A stretch of DNA of 64,000 bases from an uncultured Acidobacteriota bacterium (GCA_963827655.1 CAWHCF010000020.1:64001-128000), one strand, 5' to 3'. Counted from the first letter of the stretch, positions 55,761 through 64,000 are shown. Translations and numbers: made by a program. The notes: generated from the letters alone by a model not told the origin.

Positions 55761-58700
55761 ATGCCCCGTTCTCTAACCCGCATGATTGCGTTGCTCGTCG
55801 TCGTCGCCGCCGCCGGCGATCGCGCTTCGGCACAGAGCGACGGAGCGGAGTTCTTCGAGAAGAATATCCGGCCGCTGCTGGCGCAAAACTGCTTGATCTG
55901 CCACTCCGCCGCAAGCCGTCCGGTCATGGGTGGTCTCCGTCTGGACAGCCGGGAGGGGATCGAGAAAGGAGGCTCTCGAGGCCCGGCGATCGTCGACGGA
56001 AATTCCGAAAAGAGCCTGCTGATTCGCGCCGTTCGGCACGTGGACGACAAGCTGCAGATGCCGCCTCGGGGCAAACTCAAGGACGCGGACATCGCGCTCC
56101 TGGCGCAGTGGGTGGACAGGGGGGCTCCCTGGGGTGTCGAGCGGTTGCAATCGGACGCAAAGCAGGATTTCTGGGCCTTCCTCGCGCCGAAGGAACCTTC
56201 TATCCCGGATGTAAAAAACCAGGCTTGGGTCAAGTCTCCGATCGATGCCTTTGTCCTGGCCGGGCTTGAAGCCAAGGGCCTGATGCCTGCGCCTCCAGCG
56301 GACAAGCGCACACTGATCCGCCGCGCCACGTTCGATTTGACCGGTCTTCCGCCTAAGCCCGAGGAGGTGCGCGCCTTTCTCGAAGACAAGACGCCGGAGG
56401 CCTTCGCCCGTGTCGTGGATCGACTCCTGGCCTCACCGCGCTACGGCGAGCGATGGGGCCGCCACTGGCTGGATGTCGCCCGTTACGCCGACTCGAACGG
56501 ACTGGACGAAAACCTGGTGTACAAGAACGCGTTCCGCTACCGCGACTATGTGATCCAGGCGTTCAACCAGGACAAGCCCTACGATCGATTCATCCATGAA
56601 CAGCTGGCCGGCGATTTGCTCCCCGATTCGGGAGATCTCAAGACCACCTTCGAGCGCTGGACCGCGACCGGCTTCCTCTCGCTCGGCGCCAAAATGCTGG
56701 CCGAAGATGATCCAGTGAAGATGGAAATGGACATTGTGGATGAGCAGCTCGATACGACCAGCCGCGTGTTCATGGGTCTGACGGTCGGGATGCGCCCGCT
56801 GCCATGACCATAAGTTCGATCCCATCCCGCAGGCCGACTACTATTCGCTGGCAGGGATCTTCAAGAGCTCGAAGACGATGGAGAACTTCAAGGTCGTCGC
56901 CAAATGGCACGAATATGTGCTCGCGCCCAAGGCAGACCGGGACCGGCTCCAGGCTCACGAAGAAAAGATCGAGGCAAAGCGCCGGGAAATTGGCCGCATC
57001 CGGAAAGCAGAGAACTCGAAACTGGTGGCCGAAGGAAGGCAAAAGGTCGGCGCTTACCTCCTGGCGGCGGCCGCGGTGGAGCGCTCTGAACAGATTCGTC
57101 TCCGACCCGTGCTCCGCGACGCAGGGATGTCTCCTGCGGATGGGACGGTCGTGCGCGAGTCGGGTAGCTTTGAGCGTGGCAATGTCTCGCGCAAGCCCGC
57201 AAAGGGACAGAAGAACATCGCCGAGGATGAGAAAGGACCGTTCTTCGCGGAGTACGATCTCGCGATTGCCGCTCCGGGCGAATACCAGATCGATTTCCTT
57301 GAGGAAGAGAAGGGAGCCGGCACCGCCGATCTTTGGATCAATGGGCAGATGGTAAAACGCGGCGCCGAGCCCATCCAGAATCGCGCCGCGTCGCCGGATG
57401 CCGGCGGATGGGCTGCTGCGGGCATCTTCCCGCTGGTGGCGGGAAAGAACACGCTGCGGTTAGAACACAAGAGCCGATTCCCGTACTTCGAAAAGCTTCT
57501 GGTGGCGCCGAGTTCTCTGGCGAAGGGCGTGCCGGTGCCGAGGACGCCGGTGCAGGTGGCGCGCCAGTACGGCATCAATCCCGGATTCCTGGATCAATGG
57601 GTCGATCATTTGCGCCGGTCGAAGGGTGCGCCTCACTCGGTGCTCTACGGCTGGGACGTCTATGGCACCCGGCGGCCGCTGGACGAGTGGACCTCGCCCG
57701 CTGCCAAGCTGTTCCGGGACTTCCACCCCGCGAACCGTGAGGAGCTCGCCGCGCCGCTACCAGGAGTTGTTCAGTGAGTCGGTGCGCCAGTGGCAGGCGC
57801 TGCATCCCGGCGGTGAGGTCGACAACGAAAAGGCGGATGACAAGAAGGAAGAAGCCGGCTTGACCGATGCCGGGTTGGAAGCTCTGCGACAGCTGCTGTA
57901 CGAGAAATTCGGACCGTTTCGTCCGCCGGCGGATTCCAGCCAGTACTTTCCGGCTGAGGCCCAGCGGGAGCTGGCGCGGCTGGAGGGTGAGGAGAAGGAG
58001 CTGGTAGAGGCAACTCCGGAGTTCCCTCACGCGATGGGAATCCGTGAAGGCGAGATCGCCGATCTACCCATTCATATCCGGGGCAGCCACTGGACCCTGG
58101 GCCCGGTGGCGCCGCGCCGGTTTCTGCGCGTGATAGCCGGCGACAATCAGAGTCGCTATCGGCGCCAAGGAAAGCGGTCGCCTCCAACTGGCGCAATGGC
58201 TGACGCAGAAGGACCATCCGCTGACGAGCCGCGTCATGGCGAATCGCATCTGGCGCTGGCACTTTGGCCGCGGGATCGTGCCTTCCACCGACAACTTCGG
58301 GCGTCTGGGCGAGCCGCCCACCAATCAACCGCTGCTCGACTGGCTTGCGCTTCGGTTCATCGAGGGCGGCTGGTCGATCAAGGCGATGCACCGGCTCATC
58401 ATGCTCTCGACCACCTACCAGATGAGCAGCCGGTATGACGCGCGAGCGGCCGAAACCGATCCCGAAAACACGCTGTTGTGGCGCATGAACCGGCGCCGCC
58501 TGGAAGCCGAAAGCATCCGCGACGCGATCATGGCCGTTTCCGGAGACCTGGACTTCACGGAGGGCGGGTCCATTCTGGCGTACAAGGACCGCCAGTATGT
58601 GCAATACCGGCGGGTGGCATTGACTACGATCGTAACATTCGCGCGGTCTATCTACCTGTGATCCGCAGCTCGATGTACGACGTCTTCCAGGCATTCGATT

Positions 58701-59048
58701 TGCCCGACCCTTCCATGTCGAACGGAGACCGGGACTCGACCGTGGTGGCCCCACAGGCGCTGTTCATGATGAACGGGTCCGTGCCGCTCGCAGCACAGCC
58801 GCAAGATGGCCGAGAGATTACTGGGACGGGCCGATCTCGACGATGCCGGAAGGATCCGCGACGCCTATGAGCGCGCGCTCGGCAGACCGGCGGCTGCGCA
58901 GGAAATCGACCGGGCGCTGGCGTTCATCGCTCGAGTGGAACGGGCGATGGAAAAGCGGAAGGAAAATGCGGGCGAACGCCGCGTGTTCGCATGGCAGAGC
59001 TTCTGCAAGTCGCTGATCGCATCGAATGAGTTTATCTATCTGAACTGA
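55761..59048 (+). CDS. Planctomycete-type cytochrome c (PSCyt1) + DUF1549 + DUF1553 protein, split by several indels
   Basis: [104 protein letters not shown]. Confidence 0.9.
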
Positions 59049-59057
59049 GGATCGCCG

Positions 59058-60513
<1,456 letters not shown>

Positions 60514-60788
60514 GTCCTGCTGTCGCAATTACGGAAACGTATTTTGGCAGTTGAGGCCTGAAAGGCCGACAGAGATAGACCCGCCGTAGGGCCGGGAATG
60601 CGTACATTAAGAAGGAGCGCCGAAGGTGCGCAAGCCGGAGTTGGTCCTTCGAACTCGTGGCAGGGGCGTCTCGAAACCCCGCCCTGACGGGCGGGGCTAC
60701 TCACTGCCGGGCCTTCGGCCCTAGGCGACGACAGCGCCGACTCCTGCCACTCTGGCCAATACGTTAGCGTATTTACAAACCAACCGAC
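60514..60788. mobile_element. MITE family B (275 bp) with TAA target duplication, carrying a REP-like pair
   Basis: TAA|GTCCTGCTGTCGCAATTACGGAAACGTATTTTGGCAG ... CTGGCCAATACGTTAGCGTATTTACAAACCAACCGAC|TAA; internal GGCCTGAAAGGCC, CCCCGCCCTGACGGGCGGGG and GGGCCTTCGGCCC hairpins. Confidence 0.7.
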
Positions 60789-60792
60789 TAAG

Positions 60793-62439
60793 CTAGAGCA
60801 AGGGTTTCAGCCGGCCATATCCGGACCGGCTCACCGGCAGCTTCGTCCCGTCGGCAAGGATGGCGACCCGGCTGTCCTTGGCGTACAGTTCAAGCCGCAC
60901 CATGCGCTCGACATTCAAGATATACGACCGGTGAATGCGGATAAAACGGTCGCTGTCGAGCAGCGCTTCCAGCTCGTTTAGCGTTTGCTGCTTGAGGTAA
61001 TCCTTGCCTCCGGCCTTGATACAGACGTAGTCATCCTGGGCTTCGACGTAGTCGATCTTTCCCACAGCAATGACGTGGACCCGGGAGCCATCCCTGACCA
61101 GGACCCGCTCTGATTTTCTTTCGGGAATGCGCGCGCTGGCCGCCAGGCCGGCCGCGGGCAGAGTCTCTCTGCGGCGGAACTTCTCGCGGGCATGGCCGAT
61201 GGCCTCCGCGAGCCGCTCCGGGCTGAAGGGCTTCAGCAGATAGTCCACGGCGTGGACCTCGAAGGCCTTCAGGGCATACTCGTCATAAGCGGTTATGAAG
61301 ATCACGGCCAGGTTTCGCTCGATCAGCTCAAGAACCTCGAAGCCGTTGAGTTTCGGCATCTGAATATCGAGGAACAGGATATCGGGCTTGAGCTCGGTAA
61401 CCGTCTTCACCGCCTCAAAGCCATTGGAGCATTCGGCCAGGATTTCGATTTCGGGGAAGGCGGAGAGATACTCTCTTAGAACTTCGCGAGCCGGTTGCTC
61501 ATCGTCTACGATCACGCAGCCGAGCTTTTCGCGTCCCGAGAAATCGGAGGGGCTCTCCGGGAATCGCCGGCGCGCTTCCAGGCTGAAGTCCGTTTCTTGC
61601 TTGAGTTGACGCAGATCGGCCAGCAGTTCACCGGCTGACTGGTAGCGCGCCCGGAGATTCTTCTCGAGCGTTTTCTTGATGATGGCTTCCAATTCTGCGG
61701 GCAGGTCCGGGTTGATGCCGGCAGGAGGAACCGAAGTCTTGTTCAGGATCGAGTCGAAGACGAGCGCGGGAGTATTCCCCGCAAAGGCTTGCTTGCCCGT
61801 GCTCATCTCGTAAAGCACCGACCCGAAGGAGAAAAGGTCGCTGCGGGCGTCGATCGGCTCTCCGCGAGCTTGTTCAGGAGACATGTAAGCCACGGTTCCC
61901 ATCAATGCATTCGTGCGCGTCAAAGGGGGATCCGATTCCAGGGTGGTATCGCGTCCTTCGGTCCCTTGCGCCGAAAACTTCGCCACGCCGAAGTCCAGCA
62001 CCTTGGCCTGTCCGCGCTCGGTCAGCAAGATATTGGCCGGCTTGACGTCCCGATGCACAATTCCCTTGGAATGCGCGGCGTCCAGGGCATCGACGATCTG
62101 AATCGACAGTTCGAGAATCTCTCCGATCTTAAGGGGCCTGCCGGCGCAGTGCTGGTTGAGCGTATCTCCTTCCAGAAACTCCATCACGATAAAGGGCTGT
62201 TTTTGATGCTCGGCCACATCGTAGATGGTGCAGATGTGAGGGTGATTCAGCGCCGAGGCGACACGCGCTTCCCGCTGGAAGCGTTCCAGAGCGCGGCGAT
62301 CTTTTGACAACTCTTCCGGCAGAAATTTCAGCGCCACGAGCCGATTGAGCCGCGTGTCCTGCGCTTTGTAGACCACGCCCATGCCGCCGGCTCCCAGCTC
62401 CTCGAGAATCCTGTAATGAGCTACGGTTTTGCCGGTCAT
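60793..62439 (-). CDS. Hanks-type Ser/Thr kinase - receiver - LytTR fusion protein
   Basis: LGAGGMGVVY, VALK, HRDVKPAN, DFG, GTVAYMSPEQ, then in frame IVDDE, FLDIQMP, ITAYDEYA, LLKP, FIRIHRSYILN, LPVSRS. Confidence 0.92.
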   Translation of the reverse strand: MTGKTVAHYRILEELGAGGMGVVYKAQDTRLNRLVALKFLPEELSKDRRALERFQREARVASALNHPHICTIYDVAEHQKQPFIVMEFLEGDTLNQHCAGRPLKIGEILELSIQIVDALDAAHSKGIVHRDVKPANILLTERGQAKVLDFGVAKFSAQGTEGRDTTLESDPPLTRTNALMGTVAYMSPEQARGEPIDARSDLFSFGSVLYEMSTGKQAFAGNTPALVFDSILNKTSVPPAGINPDLPAELEAIIKKTLEKNLRARYQSAGELLADLRQLKQETDFSLEARRRFPESPSDFSGREKLGCVIVDDEQPAREVLREYLSAFPEIEILAECSNGFEAVKTVTELKPDILFLDIQMPKLNGFEVLELIERNLAVIFITAYDEYALKAFEVHAVDYLLKPFSPERLAEAIGHAREKFRRRETLPAAGLAASARIPERKSERVLVRDGSRVHVIAVGKIDYVEAQDDYVCIKAGGKDYLKQQTLNELEALLDSDRFIRIHRSYILNVERMVRLELYAKDSRVAILADGTKLPVSRSGYGRLKPLL

Positions 62440-63569
62440 GGCCGTGAACGTCTGGTGGCAAGAGGCTCCCGGTCGCGACCGGTAGTGTTTTGCGGATCCA
62501 GTGGAGGCTTATTCTCGAAAACCGCGGGAAGCGTGAGTTCCACACGGAAGTGGCCATCCTTCTCCTGCACGTCCACGCGAGACTCCGATCCATGAAGCGT
62601 CGCCAGGCGGCTGCGCACATTCTGAAGGCCGAGTCCTTGTCGCGTTGCTTGTGGCCGCTCACGATCGCAGGGGTTATCGATCGCGATTCTGAGCCGATCT
62701 CCCCTTCTTTCGGTCTTGATGCGGATGGTTCCTCCCTCGATCAGCTGGGCGATACCGTGGTTGACGGCGTTTTCAACCAGGGGTTGAAGAAGAAGCGGAG
62801 GCACCAGGCAGTCCTTGCTGGCTTCGTCGATTTCCTGTTCTACTCTCAGGCGCGAGCCGAAACGAACCCGCTCGATGGAGAGAAAATTCGACGCCAGCGC
62901 AATCTCTTCGACCAGGGGAATATTCTGCTGCGCTCCCAGGCTGATGCTCTTGCGGAGGAAATCCGCCAGCAGCAGGCACATCCTTCGCGCGCCCGCACTA
63001 TCGGTGGCGATGAGAGAGCTGACGGAGTTGAGGCTATTGAAGAGGAAATGCGGATCGATCTGGGCTCTCAGCGCCTTGAGCTCAGCCTCGCGAGCCAGAA
63101 TCTCGTGCTCCAGCGCAAGCCGCTCCGATTCCCGGGCGACCTCAAAGCTTCCTATTACGTAGTTCACGGCGATCGCAAGATAGAAAAGGAGGATTCCCAC
63201 GCCGAGCAGCAGCGGGACTTCAGCGTTATAGCGCTCACTGAGCGTGGCAAACTTCGGGATGAACGAGAGCAGGGATACGTAGAGTTTACCCGTGAGGATC
63301 CACCAGGTGCTGGAGAGAAAAGCCGCGATCGTATGGACACTGAAGAGCCGGACAAAGCCTGTGCGCCGAAGCGGGAGCGCGCGGCACAAGTACCAGCTGG
63401 GAAGACAGATGAACGCATACTCGGATGCCAGCGGGAACGCAACGACGACGGACTCCGTCCAGGAGAGGCGTCCCGAGAGTGCCAGCAGAGTAGCGAGAAG
63501 GCAGGCTACGGGGAACCAGGCAGCGAGATAAATTCGAAGAATTCCTTTTTGCGTGGCAATGGGGTGCAT
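62436..63569 (-). CDS. LytS/AlgZ-type sensor histidine kinase
   Basis: N-terminal TM helices; AELKALRAQIDPHFLFNSLN, LQPLVENAVNHG, GLGLQNVRSRL; ATGA overlap with the downstream gene. Confidence 0.92.
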   Translation of the reverse strand: MHPIATQKGILRIYLAAWFPVACLLATLLALSGRLSWTESVVVAFPLASEYAFICLPSWYLCRALPLRRTGFVRLFSVHTIAAFLSSTWWILTGKLYVSLLSFIPKFATLSERYNAEVPLLLGVGILLFYLAIAVNYVIGSFEVARESERLALEHEILAREAELKALRAQIDPHFLFNSLNSVSSLIATDSAGARRMCLLLADFLRKSISLGAQQNIPLVEEIALASNFLSIERVRFGSRLRVEQEIDEASKDCLVPPLLLQPLVENAVNHGIAQLIEGGTIRIKTERRGDRLRIAIDNPCDRERPQATRQGLGLQNVRSRLATLHGSESRVDVQEKDGHFRVELTLPAVFENKPPLDPQNTTGRDREPLATRRSRP

Positions 63570-63571
63570 GC

Positions 63572-64000
63572 TCAGTTCTTGGTTTCGACCCCGCCCATGA
63601 TGGCAAATCCTTTGACTACGAGCCGCTTCTTCGGTTCTCCCTGAGGCGGTCGCGTCGTATCCTCGAATCCGCCCATAAGAGGGAAGCCCTGGGAGACCAC
63701 AGTCCAGTCTTCGGGCACCTTGATCTCGATTCCTCCCCACCAGGCGAAGGTGTGAATGACAGCTTCCTCGCGCTGAATGTCGCACTCGCGCAAATCAATC
63801 TCGCATCCACCCATGATCGCGGTGAACTCTCCACTCCGGAAGTCTTTTGAATTGCAGCTTCGTACGACACCCCCCATTACGGCGATTGCGCTGATTGTGG
63901 AGTCTGGGTCGACGGGTATGTTGGGCTTGTCTGCGATCGCGATCTTTGAACTGCGAGCAAAAGCCTGCCATACCATGCTTCCGCCGATGGCGACCAGGAT
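63572..64000 (-). CDS. LiaF-like cell-envelope stress protein (DUF2154-like C-domain), 5' end beyond the window
   Basis: AIAVMGG...GEFTAIMGGCEIDLR...AWWGGIEIKVPEDW...GFAIMGGVE; frame stays open to the window edge (ILVAIGGSMVW). Confidence 0.85.
   Translation of the reverse strand: MLVAIGGSMVWQAFARSSKIAIADKPNIPVDPDSTISAIAVMGGVVRSCNSKDFRSGEFTAIMGGCEIDLRECDIQREEAVIHTFAWWGGIEIKVPEDWTVVSQGFPLMGGFEDTTRPPQGEPKKRLVVKGFAIMGGVETKN

Follow-up and report, generated by a model that had tools for sequence, protein, structure and literature searches.

A soluble Hanks kinase-receiver-LytTR protein of Acidobacteriota, apparently assembled more than once from different kinases

A 64,000-nucleotide stretch of DNA from an uncultured Acidobacteriota bacterium (GCA_963827655.1 CAWHCF010000020.1:64001-128000, our G000:C20:64001-128000; hereafter the window) contains, on its minus strand at 60793..62439, a gene whose uninterrupted open reading frame (ORF) encodes a 548-residue fusion of a Hanks-type Ser/Thr kinase, a receiver (REC) and a LytTR DNA-binding domain. 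We find it almost certain that this fusion is one real protein, that purifying selection acts on each of its domains, whose catalytic and phospho-acceptor residues are intact, and that its REC-LytTR half is orthologous to the ordinary response regulator (RR) of a widespread module consisting of a LiaF-like protein, a histidine kinase (HK) and a LytTR regulator. Trees of the two halves further indicate that the same regulator family captured different Hanks kinases independently, at least two times and probably three.

Three intact domains in one chain

The kinase domain spans residues 9-267 (61639..62415, minus strand; Pfam Pkinase, PF00069, E 2.4e-50, 171.8 bits against a cut-off of 31.7). 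It is followed by the receiver at residues 309-414 (61198..61515, minus strand; Response_reg, PF00072, 9.6e-25, 87.4 bits against 30.2), with D358 as phospho-acceptor, and by the LytTR domain at residues 453-547 (60799..61083, minus strand; PF04397, 2.5e-22, 79.3 bits against 22.6). Between kinase and receiver, the AF2 model and the alignment described below place a post-kinase helix and a variable linker (residues 268-308; 61516..61638, minus strand), which is the junction flagged by an earlier, sequence-only reading of the window. The translation shows LGAGGMGVV, VALK, HRDVKPAN, DFG and YMSPE, followed by VDDE, FLDIQMP (containing D358), T383 and K403-P404. These motifs and the three Pfam matches agree with the earlier claim of an uninterrupted 548-residue ORF with a complete kinase, a canonical receiver and a LytTR domain. 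A crude Kyte-Doolittle scan (19-residue window, threshold 1.6) likewise bears out the claim that the protein has no transmembrane (TM) segment, finding no hydrophobic stretch of that kind. Judged by motif, kinase, receiver and LytTR domain are thus intact in one soluble chain.

The fusion falls outside the named families that lie closest to it. No PASTA repeat is matched by Pfam, and the PknB/Stk1 PASTA kinase model (NCBIfam NF033483) matches only over profile positions 8-273 of 563, with 328.4 bits against a cut-off of 450. Given this score and the lack of a TM segment and of a PASTA match, we rejected the fusion as a PASTA kinase. The BtsR and LytR equivalogs (NCBIfam NF008677 and NF010684) also remain below their cut-offs (176.6 against 246 and 116 against 375), so the protein belongs to the BtsR/LytR superfamily but is not an orthologue of the regulator of LytSR or BtsSR.

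An alignment of 28 diverse full-length members, 52-67% identical to the window protein, indicates strong constraint on every domain. Kinase residues G16, G18, G19, K38, E57, H129-R130-D131, K133, N136 and D149-F150-G151 are invariant in all 28, as are T182, P188-E189, D201 and R265 and the receiver residues D312, D313, D358, T383 and K403-P404; the LytTR domain has many invariant columns. The linker (268-308) differs in length and sequence between the clades of the family (A, B and C, defined by the kinase tree below). No Met is conserved at the junction in these sequences, and V309 is not kept as a start.

The closest solved structure is the kinase domain of M. tuberculosis PknB (E 7e-59 over residues 8-278), all of whose catalytic motifs are matched; the TM and PASTA regions of PknB are absent from the fusion. 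The window's L-T174-R-T176 aligns on V-T-Q-T of PknB, so that T174 corresponds to the first Thr of the TQT stretch, whose threonines are the autophosphorylation sites of PknB. Position 174 is T in 24 and S in four of the 28 sequences. No solved chain was found that matches both the kinase part and the REC-LytTR part. In the AF2 model of the fusion (mean pLDDT 82, pTM 0.54), a helix at 269-291 is followed by a stretch with pLDDT <50 at 294-302, and the low-confidence parts are the activation loop (152-179) and the two linkers (294-302 and 427-440).

Continuity of the gene in independent data

Logan contigs from four public runs were placed on the locus. One contig, from a rhizosphere metagenome (X4 record 25; 1534 nt, ungapped, 31 differences), spans 60859-62392, nearly the whole gene; another, from a soil metagenome of a different study (X2 record 20; 732 nt, four differences), covers 61489-62220, across the kinase-receiver junction. 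No indels are listed at the locus in the spanning contigs. The sequence-only reading had raised the prospect of a chimeric join or a stop at the junction; independent DNA contigs cross the 61500-61620 region with no stop or indel. Contigs of two RNA libraries match portions of the kinase, REC-LytTR and HK regions and leave 61470-61690 uncovered.

These contigs matter because the stretch beside the fusion has frameshifts. A PSD1 (DUF1553) gene (58236-58870, plus strand) is split between ORFs that carry profile positions 21-144 and 151-204, and a DUF1501 gene (59201-60431, plus strand) between ORFs that carry positions 1-145 and 166-362; both are either frameshifted pseudogenes or the result of assembly indels.

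Homologues indicate the same continuity. The same three Pfam families, in the same order, are present in every one of the 120 best homologue clusters; 118 of these are 505-566 aa long, and six come from other metagenome contigs, at 93-98% identity. When the search was seeded in clade B, 117 of 120 clusters had all three domains. Altogether, well over 200 clusters share the Pkinase-Response_reg-LytTR architecture.

Origin of the regulator half

Stand-alone relatives of the REC-LytTR half are plentiful; 119 of the 120 best clusters are REC-LytTR proteins of 243-326 aa with 58-75% identity. Among aligned RR halves, the median identity to the window is 69% for 121 unfused and 60% for 120 fused sequences; the unfused RRs are therefore closer to the window than most fused forms are. 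A genome of the same family as the window genome (G280) and a further one (G174) have operons that read LiaF-like, HK, RR, with unfused RRs 72% and 66% identical to the window's, and in two other genomes (G059 and G278) the fusion is transcribed divergently from a LiaF-like/HK pair. The HK and the LiaF-like protein of the window are also 48-51% and 40-51% identical to parts of the unfused modules. HKs paired with fused and with unfused RRs have identical motifs, on which basis we rejected decay of the partner HK in the fused systems.

A census of the genome collection by alignment of the RR half drew on the best 80 loci, a sample of at least 602 pattern matches. It contains 12 intact fusions, one fusion whose kinase part lies in three frames (L069) and 67 unfused regulators. 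Ten of the intact fusions belong to clade B (titled Bryobacteraceae, Bryobacterales or Terriglobia) and two to clade C (Vicinamibacteria or Acidobacteriota). The one-strand order LiaF-like, HK, RR is seen at 64 of the 68 loci scored as unfused and at eight of the 12 fused ones, in keeping with the earlier statement that LiaF-like/LytS/LytTR triplets normally end in a REC-LytTR protein of ~250 aa. An HK is adjacent in ten of the 12 fused loci (eight on the same strand, two divergent); of the remaining two, one is at a contig edge and the other (L091) lacks HK and LiaF-like genes in the 5 kb upstream. The unfused module is found under the titles of several Acidobacteriota classes and of Ignavibacteria, Bacteroidota, Eisenbacteria, Chlorobi, Limnocylindrales, Nevskia and Massilia.

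In the clade-B fusion with a broken kinase (L069 2033-2880), the kinase part runs over three frames, flanked by an HK and a REC-LytTR that are both intact, owing either to decay or to long-read indel errors. No Hanks kinase gene was found beside the unfused operons of G280 and G174 or beside a lone RR in another genome (G266). At two of the 68 loci scored as unfused, a separate Hanks kinase lies within 5 kb of the module (L092 66-902 and L086 7044-7889), and these could be split counterparts of the fusion.

We found no systematic substitution between fused and unfused RR halves and no convergent Ser/Thr change, which suggests that the ordinary RR job is retained. The only recurrent change is at residue 316 (window ~61492-61494), where 84% of unfused RRs carry Leu; fused clades A and C have Pro there, and clade B does not.

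Repeated fusion to different kinase lineages

The RR-half tree has 60 rows, made up of 55 representatives at <80% identity drawn from 242, four added clade-A rows and one outgroup. Its fused rows need five state changes, of which at least two are forced by well-supported branches. The kinase-domain tree (58 rows) combines 20 fused kinases with 38 non-fused ones from this and other genomes, including one row (L023) from an unpublished genome (G024). Here the fused rows form three clades, each nested among non-fused kinases. Clade A, comprising the window, P0008 and P0010-16 (SH-aLRT 96), falls inside a group with support of 99 that also holds 28 non-fused kinases; clades B and C have SH-aLRT values of 96 and 100.

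Forcing the 20 fused kinases, a group set by architecture and not by the tree, into a single clade costs 87.2 log-likelihood units (p-AU 0.0008), and one origin is rejected. The trees come from 'quick' IQ-TREE searches, and the non-fused rows are the best matches to the window kinase, which samples the neighbours of clades B and C thinly. Placed side by side, the two trees indicate that the same regulator family captured different Hanks kinases in separate events, as counted above. The independent fusion of different kinase lineages to one RR family argues for a selected functional coupling between them.

Distribution

The window genome (8.18 Mb, 90% complete) has 83 matches to the fusion at E<=1e-10, of which one spans all three domains and nearly all others fall on the kinase half; it has only two REC-LytTR loci. 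Within the window's class the fusion (E<=1e-125) is found in one of 137 genomes, and in none of 50 genomes of its own family. In an even sample of the phylum (401 genomes, three candidates scored per genome, with the unpublished genomes G024, G049 and G152 included), full-length matches occur only in the window genome, G059 and G278.

The family of a clade-B carrier, whose loci are titled Bryobacterales or Bryobacteraceae, is richer, with one copy each in 26 of 201 sampled genomes (among them the unpublished G608). Of these copies, 23 are near full length and three partial. Internal stops occur in G551 and G581, and 22 of the 23 near-full-length copies are without them. The fusion is common in soil Acidobacteriota and patchily distributed. 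Clade-A proteins are encoded on contigs of 5.8-6.4 Mb, and clade-B proteins on contigs that reach 6.3 Mb.

Among the best 150 entries of a representative library at 50% identity, three are complete (P0245, P0247 and P0278) and two shorter (P0295, 422 aa; P0351, 357 aa). P0295, a clade-B protein encoded on a contig of 36.5 kb, breaks off behind the receiver in a divergent tail and has no LytTR domain. We rejected it as a two-domain (kinase and REC) sister family, because its 91-94%-identical relatives are ~542 aa long and carry LytTR; it is a lone truncated copy. Another entry, P0250 (948 aa), has two Pkinase domains behind an OmpR-type DNA-binding domain (Trans_reg_C).

The ESM Atlas holds two clusters (57 and 58 members, mostly Acidobacteriota) with exactly the kinase-receiver-LytTR architecture. 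It also holds clusters of 56-103 members and 417-703 aa, mostly from Pseudomonadota, Myxococcota and Acidobacteriota, that are listed with Pkinase and Response_reg and no LytTR, one of them auto-named as a NarL/FixJ regulator. By their domain lists, these clusters suggest a broader class of kinase-receiver fusions.

The operon and its surroundings

The fusion is the last of four genes on the minus strand, in the order LiaI-like, LiaF-like, LytS-type HK, fusion, and the contig was read on past the window end to complete them. The HK gene (62436..63569, minus strand) encodes 377 aa with His_kinase and HATPase_c domains and conserved motifs. The LiaF-like gene (63572-64288, minus strand, equal to L013 5572-6288; 238 aa) lies in the window with its C-terminal 142 codons (63572..64000). 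At the operon head, outside the window, is a LiaI-like gene of 132 aa with a LiaF-TM domain only (64275-64673, minus strand, equal to L013 6275-6673), which overlaps the LiaF-like start by 14 nt. The tight packing described in the sequence-only reading is seen in the junction bases, with two bases between the LiaF-like stop (TGA, 63574-63572) and the HK start (ATG, 63569-63567), and an ATGA overlap of HK stop and fusion start (62439-62436).

The HK start at 63569 is common to four orthologues; a mechanical ORF list had placed it at 63785. The protein matches His_kinase (PF06580) with 82.3 bits against a cut-off of 25.2 and HATPase_c marginally (26.5 against 26.4). Its N-terminal ~150 residues are hydrophobic, with at least two strongly hydrophobic segments, and no Pfam match at E<=0.01 was obtained to the multi-TM sensor domain of LytS proper (5TMR_LYT). 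H174, the N-box, the NPxD variant of the G1 box and the GxGL G2 box are kept in five of five orthologues. The G1 ATP-lid box (residues 299-302), whose usual form is DxGxG, reads N-P-x-D in all five, in partners of fused and unfused RRs alike.

We call the second gene LiaF-like because of its TM domains (LiaI-LiaF-like_TM1, PF18917, 71.9 bits, 4.6e-20; LiaF-TM, PF22570, 52.6 bits, 8.3e-14; cut-off 27 each). Its scores for LiaF-like_C (PF09922, 26.5-28 bits against 29) and NCBIfam LiaF_C_term (19.5 against 57) are below the cut-offs. In four relatives with the LiaF-like gene (G059, G278, G280 and G174), the LiaI-like query matched nothing beyond the N-terminus of this gene, and the additional LiaI-like copy may therefore be lineage-specific.

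Upstream of the operon is a divergent alpha/beta-hydrolase gene. About 100 nt past the fusion stop, the sequence reads as a GC-rich hairpin (60674..60696, minus strand; 8-bp stem, 4-nt loop, then TTT), a possible operon terminator that fails the T-run criterion of the terminator scan and is not called there; the sigma-70 and terminator scan was at background level. With a GC content of 0.585, at the 43rd percentile of the genome's windows, the operon is typical for its genome, and its composition gives no signal of recent horizontal transfer. A linked PspA target was rejected, as the sole PspA_IM30 match of the genome (G000:C41:85224-85871, minus strand; 35.1 bits, just above the cut-off) sits unlinked on another contig.

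A possible bifunctional response regulator and its alternatives

We tentatively favour, as the most plausible single account though one short of probable, the reading that the protein is a bifunctional RR, in which phosphorylation of Asp358 by the HK and dimerisation would lead both to DNA binding and to a second output or feedback through the tethered, activated kinase. The HK, of intramembrane type and modulated by its LiaF-like partner, would sense a membrane or envelope cue and phosphorylate Asp358, and the phosphorylated receiver would dimerise, like LytTR regulators such as ComE. The LytTR domains would then bind DNA and drive transcription, probably of their own operon among other targets. 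The same dimerisation would join two sensor-less N-terminal Hanks kinase domains, whose activation loops (T174 and nearby Thr) would be trans-autophosphorylated and so made active. The active kinase would be a second, receiver-gated output that phosphorylates Ser/Thr of other proteins and may feed back on the regulator itself.

Several features are consistent with this. Non-fused kinase paralogues in open frames mostly run from several hundred to ~1000 aa, and REC-LytTR takes the place of their C-terminal regions. Since the fused kinase has no sensor and the protein no TM segment, this replacement leaves no visible regulatory input other than the receiver. Through the ATGA overlap, the HK is coupled in translation to the fusion, and its motifs are the same whether its partner is fused or unfused. 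In addition, all 28 sequences keep Thr or Ser at the activation-loop position that corresponds to PknB TQT. There are also precedents in the receiver-gated phosphatase PA3346 and in the action of StkP on ComE and of Stk1 on VraR, described below, and in YabT, a Hanks kinase activated by DNA (PMC3708118).

Other observations weigh against a bifunctional RR. The control of the kinase by Asp phosphorylation is a step that we infer, and the kinase is N-terminal to the receiver, an unusual position for an RR output domain. AF2 is confident in the domains and not in their arrangement (pTM 0.54, with floppy linkers). No substrate gene, FHA protein or PP2C phosphatase was found in the operon, and no conserved Ser/Thr specific to fused forms in the RR half or linker. 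LytTR domains bind paired direct repeats upstream of target genes; no direct repeat was found upstream of the window operon and no LytTR-type one common to the promoter regions of five loci, so that autoregulation is an assumption. The envelope-stress label, finally, comes only from a LiaF-like neighbour whose C-terminal domain is below the Pfam cut-off.

A possible but more doubtful reading is that the kinase is a second input, which would phosphorylate Ser/Thr of its own or its partner's receiver, linker or LytTR domain independently of Asp358 and so tune dimerisation or DNA binding, integrating His-Asp and Ser/Thr signals. The sequence-only reading had named both an integrator of this kind and a receiver-gated kinase output, and the anatomy on which it based them holds. 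Hanks kinases that phosphorylate RRs in trans are well documented, including for a LytTR regulator (PMC6010298) and for VraR, CovR and WalR (passages of PMC4601284 and PMC12189002). Tethering would raise the local concentration, the kinase appears catalytically intact by its motifs, and the recurrent fusion fits a pre-existing interaction between kinase and RR. However, a kinase without a sensor domain offers no evident second signal, and the fused RR halves and linkers have no Ser/Thr that is specifically conserved or converged on. The rarity of Hanks kinases near unfused regulators (absent at G280, G174 and G266, present within 5 kb at two of 68 loci) also weighs against this reading.

An unlikely variant of the bifunctional RR is a DNA-recruited, receiver-gated kinase, in which Asp358 phosphorylation would cause dimerisation on LytTR sites and the kinase would be active only there, on targets near the promoter, such as RNA polymerase, sigma factors or neighbouring regulators. 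If true, such a DNA-recruited kinase would be a bacterial counterpart of the promoter-bound kinases of eukaryotic transcription, and the repeated fusions would mean that the unfused LiaF-like/HK/LytTR modules of many phyla also rely on a Hanks kinase in trans.

We consider it improbable that the kinase is no longer an enzyme and persists as a dimerisation or scaffold (pseudokinase-like) module, or as an evolutionary passenger on an ordinary RR. It is dispensable in most lineages, to judge from the 67 unfused loci among the best 80, and some copies decay, with a kinase in three frames at L069 and stops in G551 and G581. Against this, the fusion has repeatedly arisen and persisted, and a passenger or pseudokinase role is disfavoured because the catalytic residues (Gly loop, K38, E57, HRD, N136, DFG, SPE) are invariant over 28 sequences.

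Least likely is an artefact or a pair of proteins, whether through chimeric assembly, through a frameshift join or through an internal start from which mainly REC-LytTR would be made; the split genes next door, an in-frame GTG (V309) at the receiver start and the RNA gap over the junction would allow for it, but the two spanning contigs, the uniform length and order of the homologues, the near-full-length genome copies without stops and the lack of a conserved start at the junction speak against it, and at the DNA level it is largely refuted.

Relation to known systems

The nearest relatives in layout are the unfused LiaF-like/LytS-type HK/REC-LytTR modules, which have the same gene order and orthologous parts. 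They end in an RR of ~250 aa, whereas here, and in 12 of the 80 best loci, a Hanks kinase of ~300 aa precedes the receiver. Proteins with LiaI-LiaF-TM/Toastrack domains are noted to associate with LytTR in passages of PMC11237479, and we found no characterised member of the unfused module. LiaR, which acts with the LiaS kinase, consists of a receiver and a helix-turn-helix DNA-binding domain (same source, in part). Because its partners are a PF06580 kinase and a LytTR regulator, the present operon is not a LiaFSR orthologue and is Lia-like in layout only.

In function, the closest precedents are kinases that act on two-component regulators from outside. StkP phosphorylates the LytTR regulator ComE of S. 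pneumoniae, with more dimerisation and DNA binding as a result (PMC6010298, in part), and Stk1 phosphorylates VraR of S. aureus (PMC4601284, in part), which belongs to VraTSR, VraT being a LiaF-type protein (passages of PMC12189002 and PMC11237479). In both pairs, as may be the case here, a Hanks kinase works on a two-component regulator. StkP and Stk1 are separate membrane proteins with PASTA sensors. They act in trans and on many substrates, whereas the kinase described here is sensor-less, covalently tethered and encoded within the two-component operon.

Two other arrangements join the same kinds of parts differently. In PA3346 of P. aeruginosa, an RR, the receiver gates a Ser/Thr phosphatase (a passage of PMC12189002); unlike the fusion, PA3346 has a phosphatase in place of a kinase, carries its receiver at the N-terminus and lacks a DNA-binding domain. 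Cyanobacterial proteins of the HstK type hold Ser/Thr kinase and histidine kinase domains in one chain (Phalip et al. 2001, as cited in PMC1262709 and PMC2176072), so that the partner of the Ser/Thr kinase is a transmitter there and a receiver with a DNA-binding output here.

No description of a kinase-receiver-LytTR protein was found in the full-text literature, with paywalled work, including response-regulator censuses, outside the scope of the search, and by term search neither 'receiver' nor 'LytTR' occurs in a 2005 survey of prokaryotic Ser/Thr-kinase architectures (PMC1262709). The suggestion in the sequence-only reading that the system is undescribed therefore holds for the literature searched. 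It does not hold for databases, where the architecture is abundant and auto-named 'protein kinase' or 'LytT family response regulator'. The fusion is uncharacterised rather than unseen, a hard-wired form of a known cross-talk between kinases and two-component systems. What is new here is that its RR half comes from a mostly unfused module, that there were at least two fusion origins and that the distribution is patchy.

Implications

His-Asp two-component signalling and Hanks Ser/Thr signalling are usually described as separate, and only individual, trans-acting cases of cross-talk are known. Here both signalling languages are joined in one chain inside a two-component operon. At least two joins from different kinase lineages onto one regulator family are Rosetta-stone evidence that a functional link of Hanks kinases with the widespread, uncharacterised LiaF-like/LytS/LytTR module has been selected for.

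A compact system of four genes, with a soluble 548-residue protein and K38, D358 and T174 as handles, makes a long-standing question testable in vitro, namely whether Asp phosphorylation gates a Ser/Thr kinase or the kinase gates the regulator. The system also bears on the way Acidobacteriota deploy their very large sets of kinases, of which the 83 matches to the fusion in the window genome give an indication.

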